From assembly GCA_001773725.1 (NCBI GenBank), contig MEXP01000009.1:5073-69072 (forward strand): a stretch of 64,000 nt of DNA, read 5' to 3'. Numbering within the stretch: the stretch's first letter is position 1; every line of letters begins with the position of its first letter. Below the pieces are notes generated by a model. The model saw only the letters and a program-made list of their open reading frames with translations, ran no database searches and was not told the origin of the DNA. This DNA is from Candidatus Amesbacteria bacterium RIFCSPLOWO2_01_FULL_49_25 (GTDB lineage: Bacteria; Patescibacteriota; Microgenomatia; CAZETR01; Amesbacteraceae). The position numbers and the translations under genes are program-made. Positions 112 through 59,189 of the stretch are shown piece after piece.

Positions 112-1335
112 TCATTTAATCAGTTTACTGCCGATCAGAACCAGGGCCATATAATTGGGGAAAGATTTTACCCCGGGCTTTGCGGATCCGATGATATCAA
201 AAGAATAAGCATTTTGTACATAGTCGGAAAGTTGACCGTCTGTAAATAAGCCGACGTTGACCAGACAGGTAAGAGCCGGCAGGTTTATTTCGGATGTTTC
301 AAAAACCAGAGTATTGTCAGAAACTTGACCCGAAGACAGACTCTCGGACTCGACTCTAAAAAGAGCGTTTCCCAGAGTGTCAGAAAAAGCAATTTTGGCC
401 TGCAATGTGGAAAAAGGCTTGATCACTTGAAATCTCAGAGTAATGCGCAGCCGGTCAAATGATTTTATGAGATTGTTATTTTTTATGTCAGCAATGTTTA
501 AATAAACCAGGCGGATGGCGCCATTGCCGTCGCGATCCTTTCTTTGGGAGAGGGAGATTGAAGAAGAAGCTGAACTGGCTTTGAGATATGATTCTATTAC
601 CCGGGAAGGAGTATCGTCCATTTTGATTTCACCTTTTTCCATAAGAATGCATCTGTGACAAAGGTTTTTTATGGCGGTCATGTTGTGGGATACAAACAAT
701 ACGGTGCGACCTTTTTTGGACATTTCTCCCATTTTTCCCAGACTGCGTTTTTGAAACTCAGCATCCCCGACTGCTAAAACCTCGTCTACCAGTAATATTT
801 CCGGTTCCAAATGAGCGGCAACAGCAAAGGCCAAGCGGATGTACATGCCGCTGGAATAATGTTTCACGGGTGTATCCAGGAATTTTTCGATTCCGGAGAA
901 TTCGACTATTTGGGCAAATTTCCGCTTGACTTCCTTGTGGGATAAACCAAGAATATTTCCGCCTAAATAGATATTCTCTCTCCCGGTAAGTTCCATGTGG
1001 AATCCGGTGCCTACTTCCAACAAACTGCCGATACGGCCGCGAATGATAGCTGTGCCGGAGGTGGGAGGAGTAATGCGGCTTAAAACTTTGAGCAGTGTGC
1101 TTTTACCTGCTCCGTTGGCGCCGATAATACCTACAACTTCACTCGGAAATATTTTAAGCGATACGTCTTTTAAAGCCCAAAATTCGTCGCTGATTAACTT
1201 CCGGAATTTGACAAACGGATGCAAAATTTGGGATAGACTGTCTCGGAGAGTGTAATAATGCTGAACAGCTCCGAGGCGGTATTTTTTGGAAAGTTTTCGA
1301 ATTTCAATAATGGGTTGGGGCATATGGTTAGACAA
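112..1335 (-). CDS. Polysaccharide/teichoic-acid-type ABC exporter ATP-binding subunit (Wzt/TagH family) with ~150-aa C-terminal extra domain
   Basis: Translation shows Walker A GANGAGKST, ABC signature YSSGM, Walker B ILLVDEVLAVGD and H-loop VSHN; long C-terminal extension after the NBD as in Wzt; immediately downstream of an ABC-2 permease. Confidence 0.85.
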   Translation of the reverse strand: MSNHMPQPIIEIRKLSKKYRLGAVQHYYTLRDSLSQILHPFVKFRKLISDEFWALKDVSLKIFPSEVVGIIGANGAGKSTLLKVLSRITPPTSGTAIIRGRIGSLLEVGTGFHMELTGRENIYLGGNILGLSHKEVKRKFAQIVEFSGIEKFLDTPVKHYSSGMYIRLAFAVAAHLEPEILLVDEVLAVGDAEFQKRSLGKMGEMSKKGRTVLFVSHNMTAIKNLCHRCILMEKGEIKMDDTPSRVIESYLKASSASSSISLSQRKDRDGNGAIRLVYLNIADIKNNNLIKSFDRLRITLRFQVIKPFSTLQAKIAFSDTLGNALFRVESESLSSGQVSDNTLVFETSEINLPALTCLVNVGLFTDGQLSDYVQNAYSFDIIGSAKPGVKSFPNYMALVLIGSKLIK

Positions 1336-2152
1336 TGTCAGCGAAAAACCGTTCGGTTTTTTTGAAATACCAGAGGCCGAATATAAGGCACGCGACTATA
1401 GATATGAGGGAGATTGATATTAAATTGGTGTCGATAAGCGGGTTGTCGCTAAATACCTGGCGGACTGATTCTATTACCATGGTCATCGGGTTTATAGCCA
1501 TGATGGCTCGTTTTTGGAGACCAACTATACTTAAGGGATAAATTACCGGAGTGAGAAACATGATAACTTGGATAAAAAACGGCAGGATGTATCTGACATC
1601 CCGATATCTAATGTTGAAAGCCGACAGAAAAAGTCCAATACCGCAAGCAGAGAGGGCGGTGACTATAACCGCTATGGGGATGATGACCAAGGTCCAAATT
1701 GACGGATAGTAACCCAAGATAACTGCGTAAATCATGAGAATAGAAAAATTGATAAGAAAGTCTATAAAGCTGACCACGATGGCCGATAGCGGCAGAATGA
1801 CTTTGGGAAAATAGACTTTTTTGATGATGCTTTCGTTGCCTACCAGGCTATCACTGGCGTGAGACAAGGAAGTCGAGAAAAAACCCCAAAAAACCAGGCC
1901 GCAAAGCACAAAAAGTGAGTAGGGAAGATTACCAGAAGGTATTTTGGCCAAGTTTCCAAAAAAAACCGTGAATACGACCATACTGGAGACGGGTTGAAGA
2001 ATAGCCCAGGCTACGCCCAGAACAGTTTGCTTGTAACGGACTTTGATGTCCCGCCAGGCAAATGTTAGAAACAGTTCCCGGTAGCGCCAGATTTCGGACA
2101 GGTTCAGAGCCAAACTAGACTCCGGTTTGATAATGACTGTGTAATTTTTCAT
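1328..2152 (-). CDS. ABC-2 type polysaccharide exporter permease (Wzm/TagG family)
   Basis: 6-TM ABC-2 pattern with typical N-terminus 'LSEIWRYRELFLTFAWRDIKVRYKQTVLGVAWAILQP'; ORF-track N-terminal 80 aa is Arg/Cys-rich low-complexity, so start re-set to internal ATG at 2150-2152 which forms ATGA overlap with stop of upstream acetyltransferase. Confidence 0.8.
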   Translation of the reverse strand: MKNYTVIIKPESSLALNLSEIWRYRELFLTFAWRDIKVRYKQTVLGVAWAILQPVSSMVVFTVFFGNLAKIPSGNLPYSLFVLCGLVFWGFFSTSLSHASDSLVGNESIIKKVYFPKVILPLSAIVVSFIDFLINFSILMIYAVILGYYPSIWTLVIIPIAVIVTALSACGIGLFLSAFNIRYRDVRYILPFFIQVIMFLTPVIYPLSIVGLQKRAIMAINPMTMVIESVRQVFSDNPLIDTNLISISLISIVACLIFGLWYFKKTERFFADIV

Positions 2153-2778
2153 TTGGTTATCACGCGGGCCGGGTTTCCGGCTACAACTGCAGATGCAGGA
2201 ACATCGGAGGCGACTACACTTCTGGCGCCAACTACGGCGTTGTCCCCTATCGTCACTCCTTTGAGAATGATTGAGTGCATGCCGATAAAGACATTGCGGC
2301 CAATACTCACTGGTGAAACCGGCACATTTTGGGTCGAGTAGCGCCGATTGTGAGGATTTAATGGGTGAAAATCTGTGTCTATTATGACGCAATCGGCTCC
2401 AATCAACGTATTGCTACCTATTTCGATTCTTTGGGAGGCGACGATGGATCCCCCGCTGACGCCCACATTGTCACCGATAATTAACTGGGCTTCGGGGCGC
2501 CAGGTGCAAAAAATGGTAGGCCGGGAAACCCCTAACGGGTTGGACCAATGTAAGTTCCGGTTTTCAAAATTGTTTCCGATTTCTATAGAACTACTGCGAG
2601 CACGGAGAAACACCGGGGAACCGTAGAATTTAGGATTGGATCCAATTCGGACACGAATCAATGCCATAGTAAACCGGGTCCATATTGTCGATACAACGGA
2701 CGTGAGTTCTAAAACTGCTTTCCAGGGATAGTTATAGAGTTGGTCCTTTGGGTTCATAAAAATATAAATACCTGCCAA
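2149..2778 (-). CDS. Hexapeptide-repeat (left-handed beta-helix) acetyltransferase, sugar O-acetyltransferase-like
   Basis: Tandem hexapeptide repeats IGDNVGVSGGSIV / IGSNTLIGADCVI / IGRNVFIGMHSII / IGDNAVVGARSVV then AGNPARVI; true start may be internal MNPKDQ (2757). Confidence 0.75.
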   Translation of the reverse strand: MAGIYIFMNPKDQLYNYPWKAVLELTSVVSTIWTRFTMALIRVRIGSNPKFYGSPVFLRARSSSIEIGNNFENRNLHWSNPLGVSRPTIFCTWRPEAQLIIGDNVGVSGGSIVASQRIEIGSNTLIGADCVIIDTDFHPLNPHNRRYSTQNVPVSPVSIGRNVFIGMHSIILKGVTIGDNAVVGARSVVASDVPASAVVAGNPARVITK

Positions 2779-4477
2779 GGGGTTTGGCTTGGCATACGAG
2801 ACGGGTCTCTAAATCGGAGCCCGAGTCACAAGTCCGGTGGCTGGCGAACCACACTGGCTGATCGGCGGTGGCCAATTGACCCGGTTTGGGAAAGATGTAG
2901 CGACAATTGACGACCAGGACGCTCATTGGTTGTTCATCTCGGGTGTATAAAATCCCTTCATCGAGAATGTAAAGATCTTTTTCCCCGGATGTACCGCACC
3001 AGGCAATTATATCGCCATTTTGCTTGTGGCGGTCTTTTAACCAGTGGTAAATGTTGGTTTTGCCGATGGCATAGTAGACTTCCTGCGGAGAAAGATAGTT
3101 CCAAGGGGAGTAAGTGGTTTTGAGAGTGGTGAAGACCAAGAAGACGGCGAGGGCAATAATCGGTAATAAATACAACTTATACCGGACGGCCGGAAGGACC
3201 AGAATAATTATTAAGAGAGTCTGCAAGTGCAGGAAATAACGATCAAAAAAACCGGAGAAGTTTCTGGTAAGAAATAGCTCGATAAAGGCGCCGATTAAAA
3301 GGAATATGACGGTTTTATGAAGTTTTAATAAGAGGAGAGCGACAATGAAGAGAGCAACTACAACCGGATGGCCGTAGGTGAGGCTGGAAATAATCTTGAA
3401 GGAATTGGCGAATTTTATGGGAATTGTCCAGCTGCCAGTATAAACTCCTGAAATGTCATAACACTGGGCGAATTTGCAACCGAACAGGAAGGGGTAAATC
3501 GGATTACCGGTGTAGAGGAGATTTTTTACATACCAATAACCACCAAAGATTAATAAAAGCATCAAAAATTTTGCCAGATTGCGGATATGAAGGTATTTTT
3601 TTCCCTGATACAGGTACCAAGCGCTAAAAATGGTGGTGTAGGCAGTTAACCCCAAAAGGGCGGTATATTTGCCGCCGATACTTAAGCCCCAAAAAATTGA
3701 TCCAGCTAAAAACGAGGCGGGGTTGGCAAATATCATGACGTCGAGAAGGGTAATCACAGCCAGGGTAATAAGAATGGCCATGGAATAGTCGATATAACCT
3801 GATGTGGCGATGATAAGAAGATTTTGGTTTATAAACAGGTACATAAGAGCAAAGAGGGCAGATACGGTAAAACCGAAACGCAATTTGAGCCAGGCGTAAA
3901 TTGCCGTCACTCCGCTATAAAAAAGCAGGAAATGCAGAAGACGCGAGGGTGCATAGGTTTTGGTAAGGGCAAAGGGGAGAACCATCATGGTGTCGATTAA
4001 TTTGGGCAGGTTTTGGTAATAACCGGTGCCAAAATTCCAAACCAACTCGTGTTTGACATCATACGGAGACCAGAAATGATAGGCCATCTCATCGGTCAGA
4101 TATGGGGGAAGCGAGCTTTTGACAAACAAGGCTGGTGACAAAATGAAGAAAATAATTAGCGGGAGGCGATGGGATTTGGCAAATATCCACAATTCCTTCC
4201 ATCGCCGAAAATGAAGGTACGGGGGCAGAGCGATGTAGAGTAGAGGGAGCGTTGAAAACAAAATATAGTCTGCTCTAAACGGAATGAAGAAATGCAAGCC
4301 GAACCAAACGGCCACAAACAATCCCATGCCGTAAAGCCAAACTGCAGGGCGGAGAAAAGCTGGTGATTTGATATAGCGAGAGTCAAACCAAGTTCCTATT
4401 GCATCAAAGAAAAACAAGGTGGCGACCACAAAAAGGACTAAGGCTATGTTTAGGGGATGAAAATATTGGGAGAGCAT
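2732..4477 (-). CDS. Polytopic membrane protein, putative GT-C-fold glycosyltransferase (family C: 'SSLPPYLTDEMAYHFWSPY' loop, Cys-containing C-terminal soluble domain)
   Basis: ~11-13 predicted TM segments, conserved DE-containing first loop, GNPIYPFLFGC motif; paralog of 4506-6296 and 6951-8888. Confidence 0.55.
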   Translation of the reverse strand: MLSQYFHPLNIALVLFVVATLFFFDAIGTWFDSRYIKSPAFLRPAVWLYGMGLFVAVWFGLHFFIPFRADYILFSTLPLLYIALPPYLHFRRWKELWIFAKSHRLPLIIFFILSPALFVKSSLPPYLTDEMAYHFWSPYDVKHELVWNFGTGYYQNLPKLIDTMMVLPFALTKTYAPSRLLHFLLFYSGVTAIYAWLKLRFGFTVSALFALMYLFINQNLLIIATSGYIDYSMAILITLAVITLLDVMIFANPASFLAGSIFWGLSIGGKYTALLGLTAYTTIFSAWYLYQGKKYLHIRNLAKFLMLLLIFGGYWYVKNLLYTGNPIYPFLFGCKFAQCYDISGVYTGSWTIPIKFANSFKIISSLTYGHPVVVALFIVALLLLKLHKTVIFLLIGAFIELFLTRNFSGFFDRYFLHLQTLLIIILVLPAVRYKLYLLPIIALAVFLVFTTLKTTYSPWNYLSPQEVYYAIGKTNIYHWLKDRHKQNGDIIAWCGTSGEKDLYILDEGILYTRDEQPMSVLVVNCRYIFPKPGQLATADQPVWFASHRTCDSGSDLETRLVCQAKPLGRYLYFYEPKGPTL

Positions 4478-4505
4478 GACTTGCTACCTGGATAACAAAC
4501 CTATG

Positions 4506-6296
4506 TTAATTTTGAGCTTTGTAGACATACAGGCCAGGAACTACCGGTTGGGATTTGCAAACCAAATCGTTATTTTGGCGACGTAGGGACAAAATCTGTT
4601 CGTCTTCGAGTGAATGCTTTGAAGTGACTTCAGGAAGGCAGGGTGAAAGAGAGACCAAATAAGACTGACCGGTTTCGGCCAGGCCAGTAAACGAACAGTT
4701 GACAAGGAATATATCAAACCGCCCTTGGGAGTCAAACCAAATTAAGTCCGGATCCATATTTACCAAATATTGAGTTTGGGATTGGTTATTGCACCACTCA
4801 ACTATTTGATGCGTGAGAGGCAGGACTGCGGCAATCCAGCTGGCTACTGTTGACTGCCCCTGTGAAAATTGAATTTCTCTTTGGGAGTCGGGGTTAGTAA
4901 AATAAGCAAGAGTGTTTTTTGAGAAACGAAACAGCTGGAGACTAAGAATAAGCAGCAATGGAATGGTGAAGATTTTCCTGACAGGAAATAAAGACCCCAT
5001 AAGCAGTCCGAAAATAGTCGTTCCCAAAAATAACCAGTGGTAGTAATAACGGGGAATGAAAATGAAAATCCGACTGGAAACCAAGAAGTCTGCTAGCAGG
5101 ATTAGAGCCAGAACAAGAGCGAATCGAGTTTGGGAATGATGTCGGCCGCGCCAAAGTAAAATGATGCCCATAGTTGAAACAGAAATGAGTACAGCCAGAC
5201 GACGAAGGGAAAGCTGATGCCTCAGTGAAATCCAAAGAGAAGAAAAGGTCTCGCCGGTGCCCGCCCAGGCGGCTTTAAAACCTGTGAGAAAGTTTTGACA
5301 TTCCTGATTACTGCAGCCAAATAGAAAGAAAGGGTAAATCGGAGTTTGGTAGACAACTAAATTTTTTATATACCAATAACCTCCCATCAAGACAAGTAGA
5401 GTAAGGCCAAAAAAAAGGGACTTAAATAGCGTCTTGGATTTGGTTATCATAAGAGCAGTTAAGATGATCCCGAAAAAAATTGCGGTAGGGAGAAGGGCAT
5501 TGTATTTGGAACCTAGTGCCAATCCCCACAGAGCAAGGGAGATTGGAAGTAATGTGTGATCCTTTAAAATTGAGTAGATTCCAACCACGCTAGCCAGAGT
5601 AATAAAGGAGGCCGCCGCTACGTCCACATATCCCAGGGTAGCCTCGACCGGGATGGATAGTACATTGAGCAGGGAAATGGCAGTCAAGGCGATGGCTTTT
5701 GATGACCTAAGTGACAAAAGAGAATAAAGGCAAAGCTGGAAAGAGATAAAGATCAGGCTGTGGATAAGACGGGCGGGCATGTACGTTTTAAAAACCGCAA
5801 ACAACCCTATCCACGCTGTTTCTAATGTTCTGGGAAGATTGCCATAAAGCCCGCCAAAGACCCAATGTTGTTCATGATTTAAAACGTAAGGTGAAATATA
5901 ATGATAGGTCATTTCATCCCAGGCGTAAGGAGGAAGGGATGATTTGACAAAAATCAGAGGAGCCAATGGCAATATGATTAATAGAAATAGTTTGTGATTG
6001 TGAAAAAAGTTCAGGAAAGATGATATGCCTGATGATCTCAGGTAGATAGGAAGGAAGAGAAGTGCGATTAAAAAATTCCCAATTGGAATTAAAACTGATG
6101 TGAAGGGGTAAAAAAAATGGATGGAAAAGATGAGAAGGGAATAAATACCCAGCCCTAATAACCAGGTGACGGGTCTTATAAATGGGTGATTCTTGACCGA
6201 TGAAGAAAATAGCCCAAAGCCAATAATGTCCCAACTGACAAGGTATAAAGCAAGCAGAAGGTATTGATTGGGAGTAAGGATGGCAAAATAGTTCAT
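4506..6296 (-). CDS. Polytopic membrane protein, family C paralog (putative GT-C glycosyltransferase)
   Basis: 'SSLPPYAWDEMTYHYISPY', 'TPIYPFFLFGC', C-terminal Cys-containing domain; start moved to MNYFAIL (6296) giving ATGA overlap with the methyltransferase stop. Confidence 0.55.
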   Translation of the reverse strand: MNYFAILTPNQYLLLALYLVSWDIIGFGLFSSSVKNHPFIRPVTWLLGLGIYSLLIFSIHFFYPFTSVLIPIGNFLIALLFLPIYLRSSGISSFLNFFHNHKLFLLIILPLAPLIFVKSSLPPYAWDEMTYHYISPYVLNHEQHWVFGGLYGNLPRTLETAWIGLFAVFKTYMPARLIHSLIFISFQLCLYSLLSLRSSKAIALTAISLLNVLSIPVEATLGYVDVAAASFITLASVVGIYSILKDHTLLPISLALWGLALGSKYNALLPTAIFFGIILTALMITKSKTLFKSLFFGLTLLVLMGGYWYIKNLVVYQTPIYPFFLFGCSNQECQNFLTGFKAAWAGTGETFSSLWISLRHQLSLRRLAVLISVSTMGIILLWRGRHHSQTRFALVLALILLADFLVSSRIFIFIPRYYYHWLFLGTTIFGLLMGSLFPVRKIFTIPLLLILSLQLFRFSKNTLAYFTNPDSQREIQFSQGQSTVASWIAAVLPLTHQIVEWCNNQSQTQYLVNMDPDLIWFDSQGRFDIFLVNCSFTGLAETGQSYLVSLSPCLPEVTSKHSLEDEQILSLRRQNNDLVCKSQPVVPGLYVYKAQN

Positions 6297-7048
6297 TTCC
6301 TGCCGACAACGATAACAGATTGGCCGAAGGGTAAGGTGAACAACTCCTCGAGTCTGGACCACCAGGGAACAATTAATTGGTCGTATAGCGAGATTTGGGC
6401 TTTAACGAGACTATCGGACGGGGTTCTACCGAGAAATTTATTTAACCACCAGCCAAAAAACCCGGGGAGATTAAAATAAGAGGAGGAGACTATTTGTAAG
6501 CCGGCGGTAATAAGTTTTTGCTCCAGACCGGATTTGGAATAGCGACGGAAATGTCCGATTGACCTGTCCCAATTGCCCATTAGAAAATTGAAGGCGGGAA
6601 CAAAGACTATCAGTTTGCCGCCGGGTTTGAGAATTTTGGCAAGCTGGACAATTGCTTGGGAATCTTTTTGGATGTGTTCCAGAGTATTAATGGTCACGAT
6701 AGTGTTTACTCGGGGCAATTTGTGCAGGGCGGTGGGTGAAGATATATCCGCATTTACGACGAGGATATTTTTATGAGTGGCATATTTGCGGCGGAGGTAA
6801 GAAATGTATCGCCTATCATTATCACAGAGAACCAAATGACGGGATCCCGATTCAAGAAGAACGTCGGCAATCGTGCCCAGTCCGGATCCAGCTTCCATAA
6901 CCACTCCCGAAACGTGCGACTTAATGTGCCGCCAAATCCAATGGTTGTAGTTATCTGCTTTTTGGGTTGCTACCAAACCCGCTGTCAGGGGAGAAGTAGT
7001 TAAATTCATAAAGATAAGGGGGAGGCAGGGGGCGTGATTTACAGACAA
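6293..7048 (-). CDS. Class I SAM-dependent methyltransferase
   Basis: Motif I VMEAGSGLGTIADVLL, acidic motif II LVLCDND, motif post-II/III region LKPGGKLIVFV; start could be internal (MNLTT, 7009). Confidence 0.75.
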   Translation of the reverse strand: MSVNHAPCLPLIFMNLTTSPLTAGLVATQKADNYNHWIWRHIKSHVSGVVMEAGSGLGTIADVLLESGSRHLVLCDNDRRYISYLRRKYATHKNILVVNADISSPTALHKLPRVNTIVTINTLEHIQKDSQAIVQLAKILKPGGKLIVFVPAFNFLMGNWDRSIGHFRRYSKSGLEQKLITAGLQIVSSSYFNLPGFFGWWLNKFLGRTPSDSLVKAQISLYDQLIVPWWSRLEELFTLPFGQSVIVVGRK

Positions 7049-8888
7049 TAATATTGTTGATTCGTCTTAAGTGCAACTCGAGTTCCTCTTCGCGAGGATC
7101 CTTGAAGAGAACTTCTGACTCCGGGAGACAAGGATTGAGGCTAATTAACCTGAAATTGGCCCGAGACTTTACTAATGTAGGAATAACATCGGGTAAGGGG
7201 ATGTTGTCTGAAAAGTAATCGGAGCGCGGGTGGATTTGGCAATTGGTCATAAAGATGGCAGCTTTACCATCGTCTTGATACCAAATGACGTCGGGATCAA
7301 TTTTTACAAGTGGAAGGGATGAGCTGGCAGAATTTTTTTCGCACCACTGAATAATCGGCCACATCCGGTCAAATTTGCTTTGGATCCAGTCGTAGACACT
7401 GGCTTTTCCGAGGGCATAGTTTATTTCTTCCCGAGGGAGGACGTCTTGTCGGTAAGTCAATAACAAATGGTAGCGCATGCTGGAAACGAGAATAATGACA
7501 AGTGAGATGAGAAAACCTCCAGAGATTATCCGCCAGCCAGTCCATTTATAGGTGTTGGCCAGCTGAATGCTAATAAAGAGGAACAAGAGAAGTTGGAGAT
7601 GTTGATGGTAACGAATCATGAAACCGGAAAATCGTTTGAGCAATAGCAACTCAATTAAAAATGAAGCTACTAAAAAATTGGAGACCAACCTCGTTCTAGG
7701 ATTGTTATTGGCAAGCATAAGAATTAGTGCTACAGCCAAAATTAAGGACCAGCGGTTGAGTCCCACAAATAACTGAGAAAAAATTTCAGGAAAATTAGCC
7801 CAGGAAACTTGGGTTGTCCAGCTGCCAAAGAATTCCGATTTCACTTGGCACTGATCCTCAAACCTATAACAAGGAAAGAAAAAGGGGTATGTGGGGTTAC
7901 CTGTGTAAATCAAGTTCTTGAGATACCAATATCCACCAAAAACAAGGGCTATAATTAGCAAAAGCGGTGTTTTTTTTAGATACTTTAACGGTTGATAACC
8001 TGACCAATGACGAAGGAAAATAAGTGTTAGAGTAAGCGCAGCGGCCGCCGAGGCCGTGATGGCTGAATATTTGGTGCCAATTGCTAAACTCCAGAAAAGA
8101 GAGGACAGGAGTAGGTTGTCGAAATTGTGAGAAATTAATTGACGAAAGATAAACAGCACGGCTATGGTGATAAACGAGTAAGTTGGGACGTCAACCATCC
8201 CAAGTGTCGAGGTGAGGACTATCTGGTGGGGAACGCTTAAAAAAAGAAAGGGGAAGAAAAAAGCGGTATGAAGATTGAAATTACGTTTGAGAACCAGGAA
8301 GCCGAAGGATAAAGCAGTCAAAAGGACAGTAAAGTTGGTCAAGCGAGCAAACGAGTAGGTTCTAAAAAGTGAAAAGGATAGTGTGTAATAGGTTTCCATT
8401 AAACGGGGGAGGTTTTCATAAATTCCCGAACCAAAACTCCATCGGGATAGAGATTGCAGTTGGGCGGGAGAAATAAAATGGTAAACCATTTCGTCACCGT
8501 AATAAGGAGGAAGAGAAGCTTTGACAAAAACGGCGGGTAAGAAGGGGGCTATCAAAATGACGGGAATCAGTAACTGCTTTAGCAAATTTAAAATCTGCTT
8601 GGGCTGATTTGAGCTGAAATAACGAGGTAGGATGAAAGGCAAAATACCTAATGAGATTACTAAGATCTGAAATCGCTGGGGCGGGATAAAAAATCCCAAC
8701 ACGAACCACCAAAAAACATAAACTCCGAGTCCAATTAACCAATTAACTACCCTACCCTCATTCGGAAGTTTCTCGGGAAAAACCCTATTCCTAACTGAGG
8801 TGCCCAGACAGTCGAGATAAATAACAATTAAGACAAAGATGAAAATTGATACGGGAGAGAGGGGAAAATAATACTCAGAAAGCAACAT
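6951..8888 (-). CDS. Polytopic membrane protein, family C paralog (putative GT-C glycosyltransferase)
   Basis: 'ASLPPYYGDEMVYHFISPA', 'GNPTYPFFFPC', C-terminal domain with WC..NC..PC..VCKS cysteine pattern shared with the two paralogs. Confidence 0.55.
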   Translation of the reverse strand: MLLSEYYFPLSPVSIFIFVLIVIYLDCLGTSVRNRVFPEKLPNEGRVVNWLIGLGVYVFWWFVLGFFIPPQRFQILVISLGILPFILPRYFSSNQPKQILNLLKQLLIPVILIAPFLPAVFVKASLPPYYGDEMVYHFISPAQLQSLSRWSFGSGIYENLPRLMETYYTLSFSLFRTYSFARLTNFTVLLTALSFGFLVLKRNFNLHTAFFFPFLFLSVPHQIVLTSTLGMVDVPTYSFITIAVLFIFRQLISHNFDNLLLSSLFWSLAIGTKYSAITASAAAALTLTLIFLRHWSGYQPLKYLKKTPLLLIIALVFGGYWYLKNLIYTGNPTYPFFFPCYRFEDQCQVKSEFFGSWTTQVSWANFPEIFSQLFVGLNRWSLILAVALILMLANNNPRTRLVSNFLVASFLIELLLLKRFSGFMIRYHQHLQLLLFLFISIQLANTYKWTGWRIISGGFLISLVIILVSSMRYHLLLTYRQDVLPREEINYALGKASVYDWIQSKFDRMWPIIQWCEKNSASSSLPLVKIDPDVIWYQDDGKAAIFMTNCQIHPRSDYFSDNIPLPDVIPTLVKSRANFRLISLNPCLPESEVLFKDPREEELELHLRRINNIIVCKSRPLPPPYLYEFNYFSPDSGFGSNPKSR

Positions 8889-9558
8889 CGCTTATTAAGA
8901 GATGGGTAGGTAACAATCCAAAGATCTTGTAAATTTTAACGAATACGGGCCGGGTAAGTTTCATTTTGTGAATGTCTGTAACAGAGAGCGGGTTAAAATG
9001 GGCTTCTATTCCCCAAAACTGACGGTCTGTTGAGCGACAAATTAGCCGGAACCATGACAAGGGTAGCCAGTGGATAAAGAAAAATGATGTGTGAGGCTCG
9101 TAAATGCAGTAGCGATATGGGGTGGTAACAAAGATGTGTTTACCGACGCGAAGAAGTTCGTTGAGTAATTTTTCCTGCAAGGAATAGCCTCCCACGTGTT
9201 CGAGCGTGGCCCAGGACGTCGCGATCTCAAATTTAAATTTGGGAAACGGGAGGCGTGAGTGGGGAATAATTTTAACGATTTTTATTTCAGGGTATCTTTT
9301 TTTGAGACTCGAGCAATCTTCCACAGAAGCGGCCGTCAACCGGTGAGGATACGGGTAATGCCGCTCAAAAAAGTTCGTGTCGGGCAATTTTTCTAATGGT
9401 GAGAGGCCGACATCCAAAATTAAGTCTCGATTGGAAGGGTGGAATAGGCGAAGCATTACTCCTAACTGGTGAATTCTGACTTTGAGCGATAAGCGGCTGA
9501 GGAGTGATTTCTCAGGAGTAATGCGATTGTTGATGTTGATTGACCAATTAATAGACAT
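8875..9558 (-). CDS. Probable SAM-dependent methyltransferase (Methyltransf_11/23-like)
   Basis: 'LILDVGLSP' glycine-poor motif I variant and 'ATSWATLEHVGG...LLNELLRVGKHIFVTTP' resembling class I MTase core; weaker than the other MTases. Confidence 0.45.
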   Translation of the reverse strand: MSINWSININNRITPEKSLLSRLSLKVRIHQLGVMLRLFHPSNRDLILDVGLSPLEKLPDTNFFERHYPYPHRLTAASVEDCSSLKKRYPEIKIVKIIPHSRLPFPKFKFEIATSWATLEHVGGYSLQEKLLNELLRVGKHIFVTTPYRYCIYEPHTSFFFIHWLPLSWFRLICRSTDRQFWGIEAHFNPLSVTDIHKMKLTRPVFVKIYKIFGLLPTHLLISDVAF

Positions 9559-10376
9559 TAAATGGACTTGACGAGAAATATTTTGGAATAAATGTCAAAC
9601 AGTAGTACGCCGAGTGTGATACCCAGCTCACGACGCATTGTGCTTGAAAGCAAGTCATAGTACTTCTTTTTATCTTGGTGAGCTTGACGGATTTGGACAA
9701 ATGTATTGCTGGATTGGGAATAGCTGTAATTGATCAGACGGCGGGGAAGTATGGCTAAATTTCCATATCTTGTGACTTCGAAAGTAAATTTCCAATCTTC
9801 ACAGAACTTGTATCTGACATCGAAACGCAAATTCCTGAGAAATGAAGCGTTGTATATGGTTTGCGAGACCTGGCAAAGATACACAAAAGATCTGGGAACA
9901 TTACCAGAGTTGAAATAGAAAAAGAGACCTAAGGAAGCTTCTTTCAGCACATTAAAAAGTAAAAGACGGATTTTGGAAAAGAACGACATACCCGGTTCAA
10001 AGACGAGGCGCATGAGAGTCATAACCGCCGCACAGTCCGGGTGGTGGAGCAAAAAGCCGAGGGCTGATGGCAAGAAATCGGGTTGCCAATAGTCGTCTGA
10101 GTCTAAAAAGGCTACAAAGGGGGTGGAGACGAACTTCAATCCGATATTTCGAGCGTTGGCCGGACCGCGACTGTGGGGTAGACGAATTATTTTGATTCGG
10201 TTGGGATGTGTTTTTGACTTGATCGAGAGAGGAATATCTGATCCGTCATCTATAATGACGATCCGAGATAACACTGGTTGTTTCAGAATCGACTCGACTG
10301 ACCGGACAAGCAAGGCCTGCCTATTTTTGGCCGGAATTATGACGGTGACTTGTGCCTCGGGAGGTGTATTTGGCAT
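9558..10376 (-). CDS. GT2 family glycosyltransferase
   Basis: N-terminal 'VTVIIPAKNRQALLVRSVESIL...IVIIDDGSD' and DXD 'FLDSDDYW'. Confidence 0.85.
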   Translation of the reverse strand: MPNTPPEAQVTVIIPAKNRQALLVRSVESILKQPVLSRIVIIDDGSDIPLSIKSKTHPNRIKIIRLPHSRGPANARNIGLKFVSTPFVAFLDSDDYWQPDFLPSALGFLLHHPDCAAVMTLMRLVFEPGMSFFSKIRLLLFNVLKEASLGLFFYFNSGNVPRSFVYLCQVSQTIYNASFLRNLRFDVRYKFCEDWKFTFEVTRYGNLAILPRRLINYSYSQSSNTFVQIRQAHQDKKKYYDLLSSTMRRELGITLGVLLFDIYSKIFLVKSI

Positions 10377-11127
10377 AAATTATTCCAATATCCGTTTCCA
10401 ACGGGTGGGGTTTAATTTTGACAGTGAAGCCCGATGAGCGCAAAAAGTCAACCAATTCGGGGTGGCGATGAGAGCTTAAGCTGTCGTGATATTCGATGAT
10501 AGCATGTCGAATACGAGAGAGTAACCTTTGAGGAAGGGACATGAGGATGTCATATTCTGAGCCTTCACAATCTAACTTTAGAATATCGCAAACGGTGATG
10601 TCGTACTGCTTAAATATTGAAGCGAGGGTGGTTGTACGAACTTTCTCTATCGATGAACCCGGCCTGGCTGGAAAAAGACTGGATAAACCACTGGCGGGCT
10701 GACTATAAAACTGCCGTTCACCATTGTGGTTTGATACCGCTTGCTGAATGGTGAGAACATGGCCTAGTCCATTGAGCTGCACGTTCTTTTGGAGCAGGGA
10801 GTAAGTTTTTCTAGCCGGCTCGAAGGCTAAGACTTTGGACTGGGGATAGGCTTTAGAGGCGACGAAGGAAAAAGTGCCGATGTTGGCACCGACGTCTATA
10901 ATCCAATGTGGACGGGGAATTCGGGGAAGAGGGTAGTGGCCGTCAATGATTATTTCTTTGATAGTGAGAGCGTCCAGAAAGTGGGTTATTTTGAATTGGG
11001 CACCTGAACGAAGTCGAAGCAAAGATTCCGAAATTAAGCCCAAATACAAGAGAACAATTTCATGCCAGTTTGTGATTTCTCTGGCAATGGGAAATATCTG
11101 GAGATAATAGCGGATTTTTTTAAACAT
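10321..11127 (-). CDS. FkbM-family SAM-dependent methyltransferase (sugar O-methyltransferase-like)
   Basis: 'IIDVGANIGTFSFVASKAYPQSKVLAFEPARKTYSLLQKNVQLNG' and 'LKLDCEGSEYDIL' are hallmark FkbM (Methyltransf_21) motifs. Confidence 0.85.
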   Translation of the reverse strand: MFKKIRYYLQIFPIAREITNWHEIVLLYLGLISESLLRLRSGAQFKITHFLDALTIKEIIIDGHYPLPRIPRPHWIIDVGANIGTFSFVASKAYPQSKVLAFEPARKTYSLLQKNVQLNGLGHVLTIQQAVSNHNGERQFYSQPASGLSSLFPARPGSSIEKVRTTTLASIFKQYDITVCDILKLDCEGSEYDILMSLPQRLLSRIRHAIIEYHDSLSSHRHPELVDFLRSSGFTVKIKPHPLETDIGIIYAKYTSRGTSHRHNSGQK

Positions 11128-12178
11128 CTGGCAGTCTATTAACTAAATGGGTCTTGACCGTCTCTACGAAAAAGACCCAGAGGAAGAGGGTGTTGGTTAG
11201 GCTGGCCAGAAAGAGTTTAGTTCCCATGCGGCTGTCCGGCAGCCAAAAGATCAAAAAGGCGAGAGCCGCGGCAAAGATAAGAAAAAAGGGAACTATGATG
11301 AACTTGCTCAGGAAAATTGAAACTCGCGAAGTCTTCTTTTCAATTGCCGATTTCAACAGTTCTAATAGAAGAAGACAGAGTCCAAGGGTAAAGACCAAGT
11401 ACACAAGAAAGAAGAAAACAGCAAAGTTTGACGGGTATATGTAGATAGCAATCAACGGCAAGAGAGCAATAAGGGGGTAAAGAATTTGTGGCTTGAGTAA
11501 AACTATGGCTTTGAGATGCCGCCAGCCGTCGGACCAAGTGGAAAGGTGCGGAGGTTTGTCACGTTGATCTTTTTTAAACGTTATCGGTACTTCCATGTAA
11601 CTCCCATTTTTGAGAGCGGTTTTCAAAAGCAGTTCGCTCGCCCACTCCATGCCGGAATTTCTCATATTTAACGATTTGTAGAAAGACTTCTTTACCAAGC
11701 GCATGCCCGAGTTGCAGTCCGAAGTATGAATTGAATAAATAATTCTAATTAGAGAGGACAGAATGGGTGTTCCCAGATAGCGATGGAGGACGGGCATGGC
11801 TCCGGGTTCGATGTTGCCGGTTAAGCGAGAGCCGAGGACCAAATCTGGGTGTAAGTTGAGAGTTTCTTTAAATTTTTCCAGATTTGAAAAGGGATAGCTA
11901 AGGTCGGCATCTGCATAAAGAACATACTGACCCCTGCTTCTGAGAATCCCTCCGTGCAAGGCTGCGCCATAACCGCGAATTGGTATGTGGACCACGTTTT
12001 CAAATTTGGCTTTATTGAGGGATTCTAGTGTCCCATCCGTGCTACCGTTGTCGGCGACTATTATTTCGAAATCGGAAGGAAAGAATTTCCGACAGTTTTT
12101 TTTGGCATCTGATATTACTTGCAATATTGTGGACGCCTCATTGAGGCAAGGAATAACTATGCTAATGAATGGTCCCAT
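11120..12178 (-). CDS. GtrB/ArnC/DPM1-like GT2 polyprenyl-phosphate sugar synthase with C-terminal TM helices
   Basis: 'ISIVIPCLNEASTI', 'IIVADNGSTDGT', 'YADADLSYP', followed by ~2-3 hydrophobic helices at the C-terminus (architecture of GtrB/CsbB/ArnC). Confidence 0.8.
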   Translation of the reverse strand: MGPFISIVIPCLNEASTILQVISDAKKNCRKFFPSDFEIIVADNGSTDGTLESLNKAKFENVVHIPIRGYGAALHGGILRSRGQYVLYADADLSYPFSNLEKFKETLNLHPDLVLGSRLTGNIEPGAMPVLHRYLGTPILSSLIRIIYSIHTSDCNSGMRLVKKSFYKSLNMRNSGMEWASELLLKTALKNGSYMEVPITFKKDQRDKPPHLSTWSDGWRHLKAIVLLKPQILYPLIALLPLIAIYIYPSNFAVFFFLVYLVFTLGLCLLLLELLKSAIEKKTSRVSIFLSKFIIVPFFLIFAAALAFLIFWLPDSRMGTKLFLASLTNTLFLWVFFVETVKTHLVNRLPDV

Positions 12179-12194: not shown

Positions 12195-13373
12195 ATGTTT
12201 GATCATATAATTTGTCCAATGAAAAGGTATTATTACCGCGATCTGGAAAAATTGATCCAATTTGTCAGGCCGACGACAGTTTGGCAGAACTTGGTGGGAG
12301 AGATGGAAGATATTCAAACCGAATTAGTGAAACTATTAAAAAAGAGTAAGCCAGAGGACAGGTTGTTGATCGTTTATTATAACCATTTATGGGAACCTGT
12401 GCTGAAGTTGGCATCGATATTGGGATGGAGAAAGAAATTGCCGGAGCAGAATTGGCTGGACGATAAAGATTTGGGAAATATTTGTAATCTGGCAGGTTGG
12501 GAGGTAGTTACCAGTCAGAAAAGAATGCTGCTGCCGGTGGAAATTCCTTTGTTATCAGACTTTACTAATAAATGGCTGGCGCACTTGCCGATGTTTAATT
12601 GGCTATGTCTGACGACGTGGCTGGTGGCCCGGCCAAAGCCAACGAATAGAAGAGATTACTCTGTTTCGATTATCGTTCCAGCAAGAAACGAGGAAGGTAA
12701 TATCCCCGGGATACCGAAAAGCATTCCAAAGTTTGGAAAATGGCAGGAAATAATTTTCGTGGAAGGAGGCTCCAAGGATGACACCTGGGGAGCTATTACA
12801 AAGCTCAAGAAGCAAAGTACAAGGTTTAGGATAAAGGCTTATAAGCAAAAAGGCACTGGGAAGGCGGATGCCATGCGTCTGGGTTTAAAAAGAGCTACTG
12901 GGGAAATATTGATGATATTGGATGGGGATGTGACAGTGAATCCTAAAGATCTGCCAAAGTTTTATGAAGTGCTGGCATCTGGATTGGGAGAGTTTGCTAA
13001 CGGAAACCGAATGATGTATCCCCAGGAACGGGAAGCGATGAGAATGTTGAATAAGGTCGGAAATAAGGTATTCGGGTGGCTTTTAACATTAATACTCGGA
13101 CAGACATTCAGAGACACATTATGCGGGACCAAAGCCGTATTCAAACGAGATTATTTGCGGATCGTTAAAAACAGAAAAATGTTTGGTAATTTTGATCCTT
13201 ATGGTGATTTTGACTTGATATTTGGAGCTGTGAAATTGGGTCTGAAATCAGTAGATGTGCCGGTAAAATATAGAGAAAGAACATATGGGTCGACAAATAT
13301 CAGCAGGTTTATGCACGGTTGGTTGTTAGCCAAAATGTCTTGGTTTGGTTTTTTAAAGTTTAAGGCTTGGTAA
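12195..13373 (+). CDS. GT2 family glycosyltransferase with ~200-aa N-terminal extension of unknown function
   Basis: C-terminal half has 'SVSIIVPARNEEGNI', 'IFVEGGSKDDT', 'ILMILDGDVTV'; the ORF track starts at 11985 but that overlaps the divergent gene by ~190 bp; 12159/12165/12195 are candidate starts. Confidence 0.7.
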   Translation: MFDHIICPMKRYYYRDLEKLIQFVRPTTVWQNLVGEMEDIQTELVKLLKKSKPEDRLLIVYYNHLWEPVLKLASILGWRKKLPEQNWLDDKDLGNICNLAGWEVVTSQKRMLLPVEIPLLSDFTNKWLAHLPMFNWLCLTTWLVARPKPTNRRDYSVSIIVPARNEEGNIPGIPKSIPKFGKWQEIIFVEGGSKDDTWGAITKLKKQSTRFRIKAYKQKGTGKADAMRLGLKRATGEILMILDGDVTVNPKDLPKFYEVLASGLGEFANGNRMMYPQEREAMRMLNKVGNKVFGWLLTLILGQTFRDTLCGTKAVFKRDYLRIVKNRKMFGNFDPYGDFDLIFGAVKLGLKSVDVPVKYRERTYGSTNISRFMHGWLLAKMSWFGFLKFKAW

Positions 13374-14848
13374 GACAGTGGTCGGATTCTATTGAGGCGG
13401 ATCCGTTGGTGTTGGGTATGGGAATGTATTTAAACTGACGATCGGGAAAACGGGCAATGAATTGCTGGGCAAGTGTGGTTCGAGTATAAAATCTATCCCA
13501 ACATTCTTTAAATAGATTCTGCTCTTCTATAAGACTGTAATCAATGAGGTCAGGCCGCTTGGCTAATTCATTGGTAAATAATCCCCCTGCCCAGACCCGA
13601 CTCCAGAGGCGGGCGAAATCAACAGCTTCTCCAATTTGCCACATATCGGCTTTTTGAGGAGGGTTTTGCATTACGTAACTACTAAGATTTTTCGCCCATG
13701 AAAGAGTACGATTAAGTGAGGAACCGTACTGAATAAAACTGGTTACAGCCAATGCCAAAAGGAGAGAAACCGGTAATACTTTGACAATTCGAGGTAAATA
13801 CGAAAAATAATAAGAGATTGAAAATATGATCATGAGATAGTTTGCCAGTTGGTAATGGCTGAGCGGATATTTAGAGAATAGTAGAGTACCCGCAATGCCT
13901 GAGAATAATAGTGAAACAAATTCGGGAACAAGTTTACGTTTAAGTGCGGAAACAAAAATAGCGGAAATTACTCCGAAAGTGATAATGTACCCAGCTGCAA
14001 ATTCCCTGTTTATTAAGGTTTTGATTGAATCAAGGTATAGGGGCATATCAAAAAAGGTGTTTTTTCCTCCTCCATGAATTTCGGAGAAAGAAGCTAGTCT
14101 TAACGACCAACTGAATAACGCAAAATACTGGTTATGAATCGGCCAGGTTGCAATGAGGAAGCCGCACAGCGCCAAAAATGATGATATAAGCGTAAGAAAC
14201 GCTCGTTTGGGAAATGAGTACTTGACGTTTAACAATGGCAAGCTGCACGAGAAAGCGACGAGAAACAAGTTGGTAAACTTATTGCCGATAAGAATTCCAG
14301 ATATGAGGGGAAGTAATAACATTAAAAACAGGGGCTTGTTTTGCCGATAGTAAGCAAAAAGAAAGAAAAATGCAGAGATGATAAAGAAGGAAGTTGTTTC
14401 CGGAACGATAGCTGATCCGAAATAAAGAACTGGACTGTAGACGATGATGGCCAGCCATGTAAAAATTGCGCTAATTAATGACTTGGTTATTTTTAAAACC
14501 GAATAAACATAAATAAAGACAGCAGTTGATAGCAATACGCTTTGAAAAAGCCTAAGGTAGACCAGGACAAAACTGTAGTGAATGAATGACCAAGTGACGA
14601 AGGTTGTTTGAGCGAATAATTTAAGGTAAATCCGTAAAGGCCAGAGGAAAAAAGCAAGGAGGCGGATAGTCGGTGTACCGGGATGATCTACGTAATGAAT
14701 TAGGCCAGAGGAAATGTACGAAATTGCGTTCGCAGTATAAACTACATCCGGGTCGAGTAAAAAAACTGCCGATTCACTACCGGCGCGTGTAAGATAGTAT
14801 GTAGAAAAGGCTCCGGTAATGGCGGAAATTACGATAACGACAAAGAGT

Positions 14849-14877
<29 letters not shown>
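13360..14877 (-). CDS. Large polytopic membrane protein of unknown function with C-terminal soluble domain (possible GT-C transferase/polymerase)
   Basis: ~11 hydrophobic segments, 'HYVDHPGTP' loop after TM1, C-terminal ~130 aa hydrophilic; no confident family. Confidence 0.4.
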
Positions 14878-19113: not shown

Positions 19114-19117
19114 ATTC

Positions 19118-59187: not shown

Positions 59188-59189
59188 AA

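Follow-up and report, generated by a model that had tools for sequence, protein, structure and literature searches.

Three neighbouring genes on a Patescibacteria contig most likely represent three subfamilies that diverged long ago within a single uncurated family of membrane glycosyltransferases, which is GT-CA-like within the GT-C superfamily and would work by the mechanism proposed below. Patescibacteria (CPR) are mostly uncultured bacteria with tiny genomes that are attached to other cells. The window (the whole 64,000-nucleotide stretch of contig MEXP01000009.1 that was analysed) carries all three genes, here called Family C, at the coordinates given in the sequence-only reading; they lie on the minus strand:

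6951..8888, minus strand: Family C copy 3, 645 aa, predicted to be a glycosyltransferase of GT-CA type and to have 14 TM helices
4506..6296, minus strand: Family C copy 2, 596 aa; its ATG at 6296 agrees with the JGI gene call
2732..4477, minus strand: Family C copy 1, 581 aa, with a shortened C-terminal domain

The three copies are genuine paralogs: BLASTP aligns them pairwise across more than 550 aa at 29-35% identity (E 1e-52 to 1e-84). Copy 3 is the one nearest to most relatives (40-43% identity). Copy 2 has its own orthologs (P0104, 41%; P0133 and P0177, 36%), and so has copy 1 (P0089, 49%; P0176, 44%; P0181, 43%). Since each copy has separate orthologs elsewhere, the copies fall into three subfamilies. 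All of them have the PPYxxDEMxYH loop in common, along with the GGYWYxKN..GNPxYPF motif and a four-cysteine C-terminal domain. The spellings differ from copy to copy (SSLPPYLTDEMAYHFWSPY and GNPIYPFLFGC in copy 1, SSLPPYAWDEMTYHYISPY and QTPIYPFFLFGC in copy 2, ASLPPYYGDEMVYHFISPA and GNPTYPFFFPC in copy 3), so the motif strings first quoted for these genes hold as a consensus and not as the exact wording of every copy.

No curated entry covers Family C. Copy 3 scored 25.0 bits against Pfam PMT_2 (PF13231; cut-off 26.1), and copies 1 and 2 had no match at E<=1. Few relatives pass this cut-off (P0031, 30.0 bits; P0085, 26.4 bits), and a precomputed PF13231 match is found in about 7 of 85. NCBIfam gave no match above cut-offs for the copies; the LIC_10190 family membrane protein model (NF047510, cut-off 100) reached 23.2 bits in copy 3 and 12.7 in copy 1, and only over its N-terminal ~125 positions (residues 16-138), a stretch that takes in the added TM helices as well as the DE loop. 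The family profile matched no PDB sequence even at E<=10. The relatives are named 'hypothetical' in their sources, and they are confined to Microgenomates-type, ultra-small Patescibacteria. Because the window copies lie below or without a PMT_2 match and hit no solved GT-C by sequence, GT-C membership rests on the predicted structure.

The structure model of copy 3 has a pLDDT of 92.8 and a pTM of 0.93. Its best Foldseek matches were GT-C enzymes, ArnT first (E 2.6e-6), followed by ALG9, ALG12, STT3, Pmt4, AftA and PglB. That most members carry no curated domain and that no solved GT-C was matched by sequence would also suit a different sort of polytopic protein in the envelope (a Wzy-type polymerase, a WaaL-type ligase or a transporter, for instance). 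We regard this as hardly credible: Wzy/WaaL and transporters were considered and rejected with no sequence or fold match, and transporters stayed below a probability of 0.1 in Foldseek. The model fold, the Foldseek matches and the conservation of the DE loop all agree with the GT-C-type enzyme suggested by the sequence-only reading. Its idea of an undescribed family stood as far as curated entries go; by its predicted fold, Family C is supported as a divergent, GT-CA-like branch of the known GT-C superfamily rather than a new enzyme kind or chemistry.

Three parts of copy 3 outside the C-terminal domain are used in the following:

8570..8888, minus strand: N-terminal extension, residues 1-106, three TM helices and an amphipathic helix
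8355..8513, minus strand: first extracytoplasmic loop, residues 126-178, with PPYYGDEMVYH
7794..7901, minus strand: loop after core TM7, residues 330-365, with GNPTYPFFFPC and C340/C347

The conserved seven-TM module with the GT-C fold of GT-CA enzymes is present in the model. The loop 126-178 would supply their DE/first-outer-loop helices, with a predicted catalytic role; it contains helices 133-137, 141-145 and 163-175 (DSSP of the model), has a net negative charge and is assigned outside. D132 sits at the N-terminus of the first loop helix in the model, and the DE pair at this position matches both the GT-CA definition and the site of the PMT 'DE motif'. D132, Y136, D233 and R426 are each conserved in 146/146 relatives, E133 in 144/146. 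The N-terminal module is different from that of GT-CA enzymes, whose catalytic loop follows TM1. Four hydrophobic helices of TM length (12-36, 43-64, 72-92 and 107-125) stand ahead of the DE loop of Family C, and the canonical start lies near residue 100 by Pfam coordinates. The N-terminal extension, which precedes the helix next to the DE loop, contains helices 12-36, 43-64, 72-92 and 95-105 in the model, in accord with the hydropathy peaks. It has K+R-rich loops at 34-45 and 91-108, and its W50 and G53 are conserved in 144/146 relatives. According to the model, Family C is the GT-C core kept and three TM helices added.

The C-terminal domain is predicted to be outside the cytoplasm from helix parity in the model and from a strong positive-inside bias (K+R of 18.3 in assigned inside loops versus 4.3 in short outside loops). 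In the proposed architecture, the N-terminus would be outside, and three family-specific TM helices would lead into the canonical GT-C core of 7 TM helices. After core TM7 would come a loop stapled by a disulfide, then four more TM helices and, at the C-terminal end, an extracytoplasmic alpha/beta domain private to the family, which two further disulfides would hold and which would probably shape acceptor binding. The four-cysteine domains are located as follows:

6954..7457, minus strand: C-terminal alpha/beta domain of copy 3, residues 478-645, invariant C516, C550, C587 and C616, predicted extracytoplasmic
4509..4901, minus strand: C-terminal four-cysteine domain of copy 2, residues 466-596
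2735..3115, minus strand: C-terminal four-cysteine domain of copy 1, residues 455-581

These domains are about 125-168 aa long, not ~110 aa as estimated earlier. All three copies have the four cysteines (W-C, N-C, x-C, V-C-K/Q). The P-C-L-P-E context reported for the third cysteine is present in copies 2 and 3; copy 1 reads R-T-C-D-S-G, and its segment between the third and fourth cysteines is cut to 11 residues. The pattern is conserved across orthologs: the four cysteines are invariant in 146/146 full-length relatives, and 145 of the 146 proteins have exactly four in this domain. A second conserved pair, overlooked in the sequence-only reading, lies in the loop after GNPxYPF (C340/C347 in copy 3). 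It is all-or-none, with both cysteines in 128 relatives, neither in 18 and a single one in 0. The other GT-C paralogs within the window have only 0-3 cysteines.

From the all-or-none loop pair and the constant number of C-terminal cysteines we infer disulfides at both places. Four invariant cysteines would equally suit a tetrahedral metal site (Cys4 zinc or an Fe-S cluster), which would fit a cytoplasmic domain, and the disulfides themselves are predictions. A metal site is nevertheless quite improbable, as the C-terminal cysteines are spaced 29-37 residues apart without CxxC or CxC knuckles, and the all-or-none behaviour of the separate loop pair is typical of a disulfide. Moreover, ten TM helices lie between the catalytic outer loop and the domain, a count backed by the positive-inside bias. 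Helix parity, charge bias and cysteine patterns together support the earlier suggestion of a disulfide-bonded domain outside the cytoplasm.

The genes around Family C are listed below:

11120..12178, minus strand: GT2 with C-terminal TM helices (GT2-TM), 352 aa, Glycos_transf_2 88.9 bits
10321-11127, minus strand: FkbM/RfbT-type methyltransferase, between GT2-TM and copy 3
9558-10376, minus strand: GT2, between GT2-TM and copy 3
8875-9558, minus strand: 227-aa protein weakly like a methyltransferase, between GT2-TM and copy 3
6293..7009, minus strand: class I SAM methyltransferase, located between copy 3 and copy 2; 238 aa when counted from the ATG at 7009
2149..2667, minus strand: hexapeptide-repeat O-acetyltransferase, between copy 1 and Wzm
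1328-2152, minus strand: Wzm, ABC-2 permease of a glycan ABC exporter
112-1323/1335, minus strand: Wzt, ABC ATPase of the glycan exporter, with a weak Wzt_C domain
13360..14877, minus strand: 505-aa polytopic membrane protein without a Pfam match

A conserved block of GT2(462), GT2-TM(352), Methyltransf_21, GT2(272) and Family C is kept in Woesebacteria CP011214 and in a second contig. GT2-TM is its best-conserved gene (54-57% identity) and is syntenic in three genomes. The FkbM/RfbT-type methyltransferase and the GT2 at 9558-10376 have orthologs in the same order in the loci L003 and L005. Wzm and Wzt have orthologs in L003 (46-48% identity), and in CP011214 they lie in the same block as Family C. 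The conserved neighbours are the Dol-P-Man-synthase-like GT2, methyltransferases and Wzm/Wzt. The 505-aa protein is also kept in the block (34% identity to its L003 counterpart) and has a weak likeness to Family C across the PMT_2-like region (hhalign probability 68%). The contig, over at least 64 kb, consists almost wholly of surface-glycan genes and encodes about twenty GT-C-like membrane enzymes, which standard annotation left 'hypothetical'.

The methyltransferase wedged between copies 2 and 3, with overlapping stops and starts, is real. Methyltransf_25/23/12/11 are above their Pfam cut-offs, and its stop shares an ATGA (6293-6296) with the start of copy 2. The JGI gene call begins it at the ATG at 7009, which gives a 59-nt overlap with the end of copy 3; with a start at the TTG at 7048, the protein would have 251 aa and the overlap would be 98 nt. 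No ortholog was found in the two syntenic loci compared (L003 and L005), and the placement is specific to the MEXP01000009.1 contig.

GT2-TM is probably a polyprenyl-phosphate sugar synthase making the lipid-linked donor. Among PDB sequences it matched the Pyrococcus Dol-P-Man synthase best (5mlz, E 1.6e-7), with ArnC next, and its best NCBIfam matches, all under cut-off, were AglJ, PpgS and Dol-P hexose transferase. The likeness of this neighbour to Dol-P-Man synthase, ArnC, AglJ and PpgS hints indirectly at an isoprenoid-phosphate-linked sugar as the donor of Family C. On the cytoplasmic face, GT2-TM would load the sugar from a nucleotide sugar onto polyprenyl phosphate, a flippase would bring the lipid-linked sugar to the outer face, and each Family C enzyme would transfer the sugar onto its acceptor. 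No flippase gene of GtrA, MATE or SMR type adjoins the Family C genes. The window has a single small multi-TM ORF, a DUF2304 at 18113-18466, and a Polysacc_synt_3 (MOP-type) protein is encoded at 50952-52430; both are without link to Family C. In the transfer step, D132 is the proposed catalytic base. The donor phosphate would be held by the invariant basic and aromatic residues R182, K273/Y274 and R426/Y427/H430, the last group in the core TM9-TM10 loop. In ALG3, a residue of the TM9-TM10 loop binds the donor phosphate (PMC13503287), and R426/H430 would be in the same loop if helix 107-125 of the model is core TM1. The loop 330-365 is presumably the counterpart of LL4, a loop that in GT-CA enzymes spans the donor groove (PMC13503287).

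Family C enzymes probably decorate a surface glycan outside the cell. The likeliest acceptor would be the glycan that leaves through Wzm/Wzt after assembly by the locus's numerous cytoplasmic GT2 enzymes and methyltransferases. It is an unlikely alternative that they are protein O-glycosyltransferases (PMT-like or TMEM260-like) modifying pilins, S-layer proteins or other proteins that are secreted or lie at the surface: Pfam found no MIR or TPR acceptor-binding domain, and the family is conserved beside the Wzm/Wzt exporter, cytoplasmic GT2 enzymes and sugar methyltransferases. ArnT with a lipid acceptor and ALG12 with a glycan acceptor were also equally good matches. Processive extracytoplasmic polymerases (Emb-, AftD- or AftA-like), building a homopolymer from polyprenyl-phosphate sugar instead of adding single decorations, are less probable still. 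The C-terminal domain does not match Emb/Aft modules, nor is it a beta-rich module for carbohydrate binding; the best matches (ALG12, ArnT, PMT) are single-addition enzymes, and the ABC exporter of the locus offers a complete route for a polymer assembled in the cytoplasm.

The enzyme type is familiar, and the value of these results is a family-level discovery that bears on how CPR cells build their surfaces. The GT-CA placement names candidate catalytic and phosphate-binding residues and proposes a donor synthase, and the analysis defines a family-specific, putatively disulfide-bearing domain. This gives a practical handle for annotating Patescibacteria genomes and for expressing and assaying Family C enzymes.

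The nearest relatives outside Family C (hhalign probability 98.5% over residues 67-336) are unannotated Nitrospirota/Thermodesulfovibrionia proteins of 648-649 aa (e.g. L030 7812-9758 and L046 7800-9749), which are flanked by GT2 genes and have no Pfam or NCBIfam match. Common to both groups are the N-terminal 3-TM extension, PPYTWD.LWYH, aYVDV and GGYWYIKN..YGNPVYP; these relatives are close to Family C in length and also have a C-terminal soluble domain. However, this domain is not detectably homologous to that of Family C and the cysteine pattern is absent. In place of the Glu of the DE pair these proteins have Gly or Ala, so only the Asp is likely essential. Tentatively, Family C and these cousins may form a distinct GT-C lineage meriting a CAZy-level family, N-out with 14 TM helices and with the catalytic loop after the fourth. 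The Patescibacteria branch would have added the private two-disulfide extracytoplasmic domain and a third disulfide stapling the donor-groove loop, and the three ancient subfamilies would work one after another on a single exported surface glycan, with donor from the conserved Dol-P-Man-synthase-like GT2. If true, this would imply oxidative protein folding outside the membrane of ultra-small, reduced-genome bacteria.

Among known enzymes, ALG9/ALG12 (CAZy GT22; ER Dol-P-Man-dependent mannosyltransferases, GT-CA) have the same layout as the Family C model, with 7 TM, 4 TM and a C-terminal outside domain, at only 9-13% identity and without a sequence-level match. Unlike them, Family C has three extra N-terminal TM helices, another C-terminal fold and six conserved cysteines, and it is bacterial (Patescibacteria), encoded in a glycan locus with Wzm/Wzt. 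ArnT (CAZy GT83; undecaprenyl-phosphate-L-Ara4N:lipid A transferase; 14-15% identity) has 13 TM helices and uses lipid A as acceptor; its catalytic loop follows TM1, and it lacks a conserved cysteine pattern. Lipid A is not expected in monoderm Patescibacteria. Compared with PMT (CAZy GT39) and PMT_2, Family C has no MIR domain (no Pfam match and no inserted beta-trefoil in the model) and combines a 4-TM variable module with the private C-terminal domain and the N-terminal 3-TM extension; its context points to a polysaccharide acceptor, versus protein for PMT. Three-component systems (Gtr-type; GT136 of Citrobacter youngae, PMC11127046) use a dedicated flippase, none of which was found adjoining Family C. 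GT136 has 11 TM helices and its catalytic Asp next to TM1, and its C-terminal domain, which binds the acceptor glycan (PMC11127046), is a beta-rich carbohydrate-binding module, in contrast to the small alpha/beta domain with four cysteines in Family C. Both GT-Cs nevertheless carry an extra C-terminal extracytoplasmic domain, a GT2 synthase is encoded with Family C as well (GT2-TM), and the proposed logic is the same: a polyprenyl-phosphate sugar synthase and a GT-C would together decorate a glycan after its export.

Three minus-strand genes of the window encode paralogous polytopic membrane proteins (Family C), and a class I SAM methyltransferase gene is situated between copies 3 and 2.

Family C genes of the window
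2732-4477, minus strand, Family C copy 1, 581 aa
4506-6296, minus strand, Family C copy 2, 596 aa
6951-8888, minus strand, Family C copy 3, 645 aa

BLASTP confirmed these three genes as paralogs (E 1e-52 to 1e-84), with pairwise identities of 29-34% over more than 550 residues. The two motifs quoted for them in the sequence-only reading exist at the consensus level, but not as exact strings in every copy: we found SSLPPYLTDEMAYHFWSPY and GNPIYPFLFGC in copy 1, SSLPPYAWDEMTYHYISPY and QTPIYPFFLFGC in copy 2, and ASLPPYYGDEMVYHFISPA and GNPTYPFFFPC in copy 3. Likewise, the four C-terminal cysteines are present in all three copies, but their proposed P-C-L-P-E context only in copies 2 and 3 and not in copy 1, where the segment between the third and fourth cysteines is also shorter. 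The C-terminal domain, first estimated at about 110 aa, measured 125-168 aa.

The methyltransferase does overlap both neighbours, as had been described. Its stop codon shares ATGA (6293-6296) with the start of copy 2, and its probable start, the ATG at 7009 (JGI gene call, 238 aa), gives a 59-nt overlap with the end of copy 3. A role as conserved partner was rejected, because no ortholog of this gene (first delimited as 6293-7048) was found in either of two syntenic loci, one in Woesebacteria (L003) and one on a second JGI contig (L005). What both loci have instead is another small methyltransferase (186-191 aa), encoded immediately upstream of Family C and in the opposite orientation.

Among 5.8 billion proteins, a word-indexed search returned 85 relatives, nearly all of 610-650 aa; the few named ones are called "hypothetical", and the organism, where given, is Woesebacteria or Patescibacteria. 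When one genome per species was scanned, full-length members were found in Gottesmanbacteria, Woesebacteria, Amesbacteria, Pacebacteria and Microgenomates MAGs, and several MAG records entitled "uncultured Gammaproteobacteria" or "uncultured Pseudomonadales" also contained them (loci L009, L010, L011, L015, L017, L019, L021 and L023). Such titles seem to be placeholders or misassigned taxonomy, since all members with a specific organism name belong to Patescibacteria lineages. Identity to orthologs elsewhere reached 49% for copy 1, 41% for copy 2 and 40-43% for copy 3, against only about 30% between neighbouring copies. Judged by these identities, the three copies are three old subfamilies, as each is nearer to its orthologs elsewhere than to its neighbours, and a recent tandem duplication was rejected on the same ground (41-49% versus about 30%).

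The suggestion that the family is undescribed held up against the curated collections. Pfam PMT_2 scored 25.0 bits on copy 3 (residues 169-313; cut-off 26.1) and did not match copies 1 and 2, and in NCBIfam only the uncharacterised LIC_10190 family matched, weakly and at the N-terminus (23 bits versus a cut-off of 100). PF26626.1 appears in the precomputed domains of three copy 3 relatives (P0024, P0031, P0084) and was not reproduced by our Pfam scan. Literature searches turned up nothing specific on CPR/Patescibacteria GT-C enzymes, Woesebacteria glycosyltransferases, LIC10190 or PF26626. Against sequences of solved structures, the 3-sequence and 82-sequence profiles gave chance matches (endoglucanase, spike) or none at E<=10; the 82-sequence Family C profile had none at that threshold in the PDB. 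Comparison of the family profile with single paralogs of the window by hhalign was uninformative (probability 1.7% to the PMT_2 protein 60617-62071; 68% to 13360-14877).

Since profile searches of solved structures gave chance matches or none, a fold comparison was needed. Copy 3 was modelled by AlphaFold2 from the 82-sequence alignment (pLDDT 92.8, pTM 0.93). Foldseek matched this model to ArnT (E 2.6e-6, TM-score 0.46/0.54), which favours the GT-C-type enzyme proposed from the sequence, and gave transporters a probability below 0.1. The transporter and Wzy/WaaL readings were both considered and rejected. On the evidence of the model, Family C almost certainly has a GT-C fold, and it is highly improbable that its members are not glycosyltransferases at all.

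In the model, helices 12-36, 43-64, 72-92, (95-105) and 107-125 precede the DE loop, the first outer loop (126-178), which holds short helices at 133-137, 141-145 and 163-175. It is followed by six TM helices to residue 329, a loop (330-365), four TM helices to 478 and an alpha/beta domain (486-630). GT-CA enzymes combine a conserved 7-TM module with a variable C-terminal module and a first luminal loop in which the catalytic base sits on the first helix; ALG9 and ALG12 in particular have four additional TM helices and a luminal C-terminal domain (PMC13503287). If helix 107-125 is equated with core TM1, the modelled Family C fits this plan, and D132/E133 come where the first helix of the loop begins. 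The pair is then the counterpart of the "DE motif" that is characteristic of PMTs as well as other GT-C enzymes; mutation of D77/E78 in Pmt1 abolishes in vitro activity (PMC8698208). In the alignment of 146 full-length members, some down to 25% identity, D132, Y136, D233 and R426 are invariant and E133 is kept in 144. In ALG3, residues of LL4 and the TM9-TM10 loop hold the donor phosphate (PMC13503287). In Family C the equivalent loop (420-428) is the site of R426, accompanied by Y427 and H430, and we infer by analogy that these residues would have the same role.

Topology was examined by counting K+R in loops assigned from the model helices, as means over the 146 sequences. The count is 18.3 per 85 residues in the seven inside-assigned loops and 4.3 per 60 residues in the short outside loops; the net charge of the DE loop is negative. 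From this distribution we predict 14 TM helices with the N-terminus outside, and the DE loop, the Cys loop and the C-terminal domain also outside, as had been supposed for the last. GT-C catalysis requires the non-cytoplasmic face, with which the predicted topology agrees. The helix leading into the DE loop is preceded by three TM helices and an amphipathic helix, and both hydropathy and the model place four TM-length helices ahead of the DE motif. By Pfam coordinates, the canonical start lies near residue 100 of Family C: position 61 of the PMT model is residue 59 in a canonical paralog of the window (54070-55575), and position 84 is residue 187 in a Family C relative (P0085). This N-terminal extension is conserved (W50 and G53, 144/146).

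All four C-terminal cysteines are kept in 146/146 members, so the Cys pattern is conserved in orthologs, and 145 of the domains contain exactly four. A further pair, C340/C347 in the loop after GNPxYPF, had been overlooked; both residues are present in 128 proteins, neither in 18, and a single one in none. Other GT-C-like paralogs of the window have 0-3 cysteines. That the C-terminal cysteines form a metal site instead of disulfides seems improbable.

A profile of the C-terminal domain found only 118 proteins at E<=0.001 among 1.84 billion cluster representatives. The domain is always at the C-terminal end, mostly in proteins of about 580-670 aa; shorter matches likewise end with it and resemble fragments. 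By this search, the domain is private to Family C. Distant relatives of 648-649 aa occur in Nitrospirota/Thermodesulfovibrionia (hhalign probability 98.5%, residues 67-336), with no Pfam or NCBIfam match. They share the N-terminal 3-TM extension with Family C. Their own motifs are PPYTWD(G/A)LWYH, with D-G or D-A for D-E, and GGYWYIKN..YGNPVYP, and they lack the Cys pattern. Homology of their C-terminal region is unsupported, because hhalign with the domain profile gave a probability of 0.14%. One relative lies in locus L046 (7800-9749). In locus L030 (7234-9758), a 192-aa TPR protein directly precedes another relative, the TPR stop overlapping the start of that relative, and GT2 genes (503 aa and 230 aa) flank it.

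As a whole, the window forms a single long glycan locus with nearly all genes in one direction. Family C adjoins a hexapeptide acetyltransferase and the Wzm/Wzt exporter (an ABC-2 permease, and an ATPase carrying a weak Wzt_C domain); upstream are a GT2, an FkbM/RfbT-type methyltransferase and GT2-TM, a 352-aa GT2 with C-terminal TM helices. The genes listed below form a block that is also present in Woesebacteria GW2011_GWF1_31_35 (complete genome, CP011214).

Syntenic block, identity to the window genes
505-aa membrane protein, CP011214 34%
GT2-462, CP011214 52%
GT2-TM-352, CP011214 54%, L005 57%
Methyltransf_21, CP011214 36%, L005 39%
GT2-272, CP011214 33%
Family C, one or two copies
Wzt, CP011214 48%
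Wzm, CP011214 46%

The 22 kb of locus L005 that were compared contain two Family C genes together with GT2-TM, Methyltransf_21 and GT2-272; no 505-aa membrane protein, GT2-462 or Wzm/Wzt was found in them. Among solved proteins, GT2-TM is nearest to Pyrococcus Dol-P-Man synthase (E 1.6e-7), with ArnC second, and in NCBIfam it comes closest, always below cut-off, to AglJ, PpgS and Dol-P hexose transferase. All of these families load sugar onto polyprenyl phosphate.

Almost all of the window (1-64000) is minus-strand. Alongside many GT2 genes, it has about twenty polytopic membrane proteins between 370 and 650 aa long. Among these are a seven-member paralog family (21986-26777, 29570-32649, 45464-48799), some of which match PMT_2 or GtrII weakly, a PMT_2 trio (57745-62071) plus 39286-40782, a GT87/ALG6-like protein (28341-29573), a PIG-V-like pair (19118-20224 and 62788-63828) and a MOP-type Polysacc_synt_3 protein (50952-52430). 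Two membrane proteins of 563 and 548 aa (26770-28461 and 52415-54061; 40% mutual identity, no Pfam match) carry Cys pairs near the N-terminus, spaced 8 residues apart (C73/C81; C42/C50). In the stretch 18113-19143, a GT2 closest to the polyprenyl-phospho-GalNAc synthase PpgS (98.9 bits over the full length, still below cut-off) is followed, with overlap, by a 117-aa four-TM DUF2304 protein, the sole small membrane ORF in the window. This protein could be an accessory or flippase-like partner; in mycobacteria, PpgS (Rv3631) is likewise followed by a small membrane protein (Rv3632). A 313-aa GT2 (34475-35416) matched the undecaprenyl-phosphate Ara4FN transferase ArnC over its full length (158.7 bits versus a 529-bit cut-off) and also PgfS, and is a second candidate lipid-linked sugar synthase of the locus. 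A glutamine-dependent asparagine synthase homolog (Asn_synthase and GATase_7, 32652-34472) amid the GT-C genes may amidate a sugar acid or glycan. Plus-strand GC skew is positive in all 2-kb windows (0.10-0.27), hence the coding (minus) strand is markedly G-poor and mostly T-rich, a composition that probably reflects the encoded hydrophobic, Phe/Leu/Ile-rich membrane proteins.

We propose a mechanism along the logic of extracytoplasmic "three-component" glycan modification (PMC11127046). GT2-TM would make a polyprenyl-phosphate sugar, a putative flippase would carry it across the membrane, and Family C enzymes, with D132 as base, would transfer the sugar onto an acceptor outside. As a whole, GT-C enzymes moving lipid-linked sugar to an exported glycan is a likely scheme, and the lipid-linked donor taken by itself is slightly firmer. 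The acceptor would most probably be the glycan exported by the adjoining Wzm/Wzt. For a polysaccharide acceptor as such we put the chances at roughly even. Protein O-glycosylation by Family C is unlikely, and a processive polymerase more unlikely still. In the proposed transfer to an exported glycan, each of the three subfamilies would have its own acceptor position or linkage. The acceptor and donor grooves would probably be formed by the C-terminal domain and the loop that follows core TM7, both presumably stabilised by disulfides; the variable module supplies most acceptor contacts in ALG3/9/12 (PMC13503287).

In conclusion, nothing is new in the enzyme class or in its catalytic and genomic logic. 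The novelty is an uncurated family restricted to Microgenomates-type Patescibacteria, with cousins in Nitrospirota, and marked by an N-terminal 3-TM extension before the catalytic loop and a private, probably disulfide-locked C-terminal domain. Family C is useful to specialists and not startling, because variable modules are familiar in GT-C enzymes.
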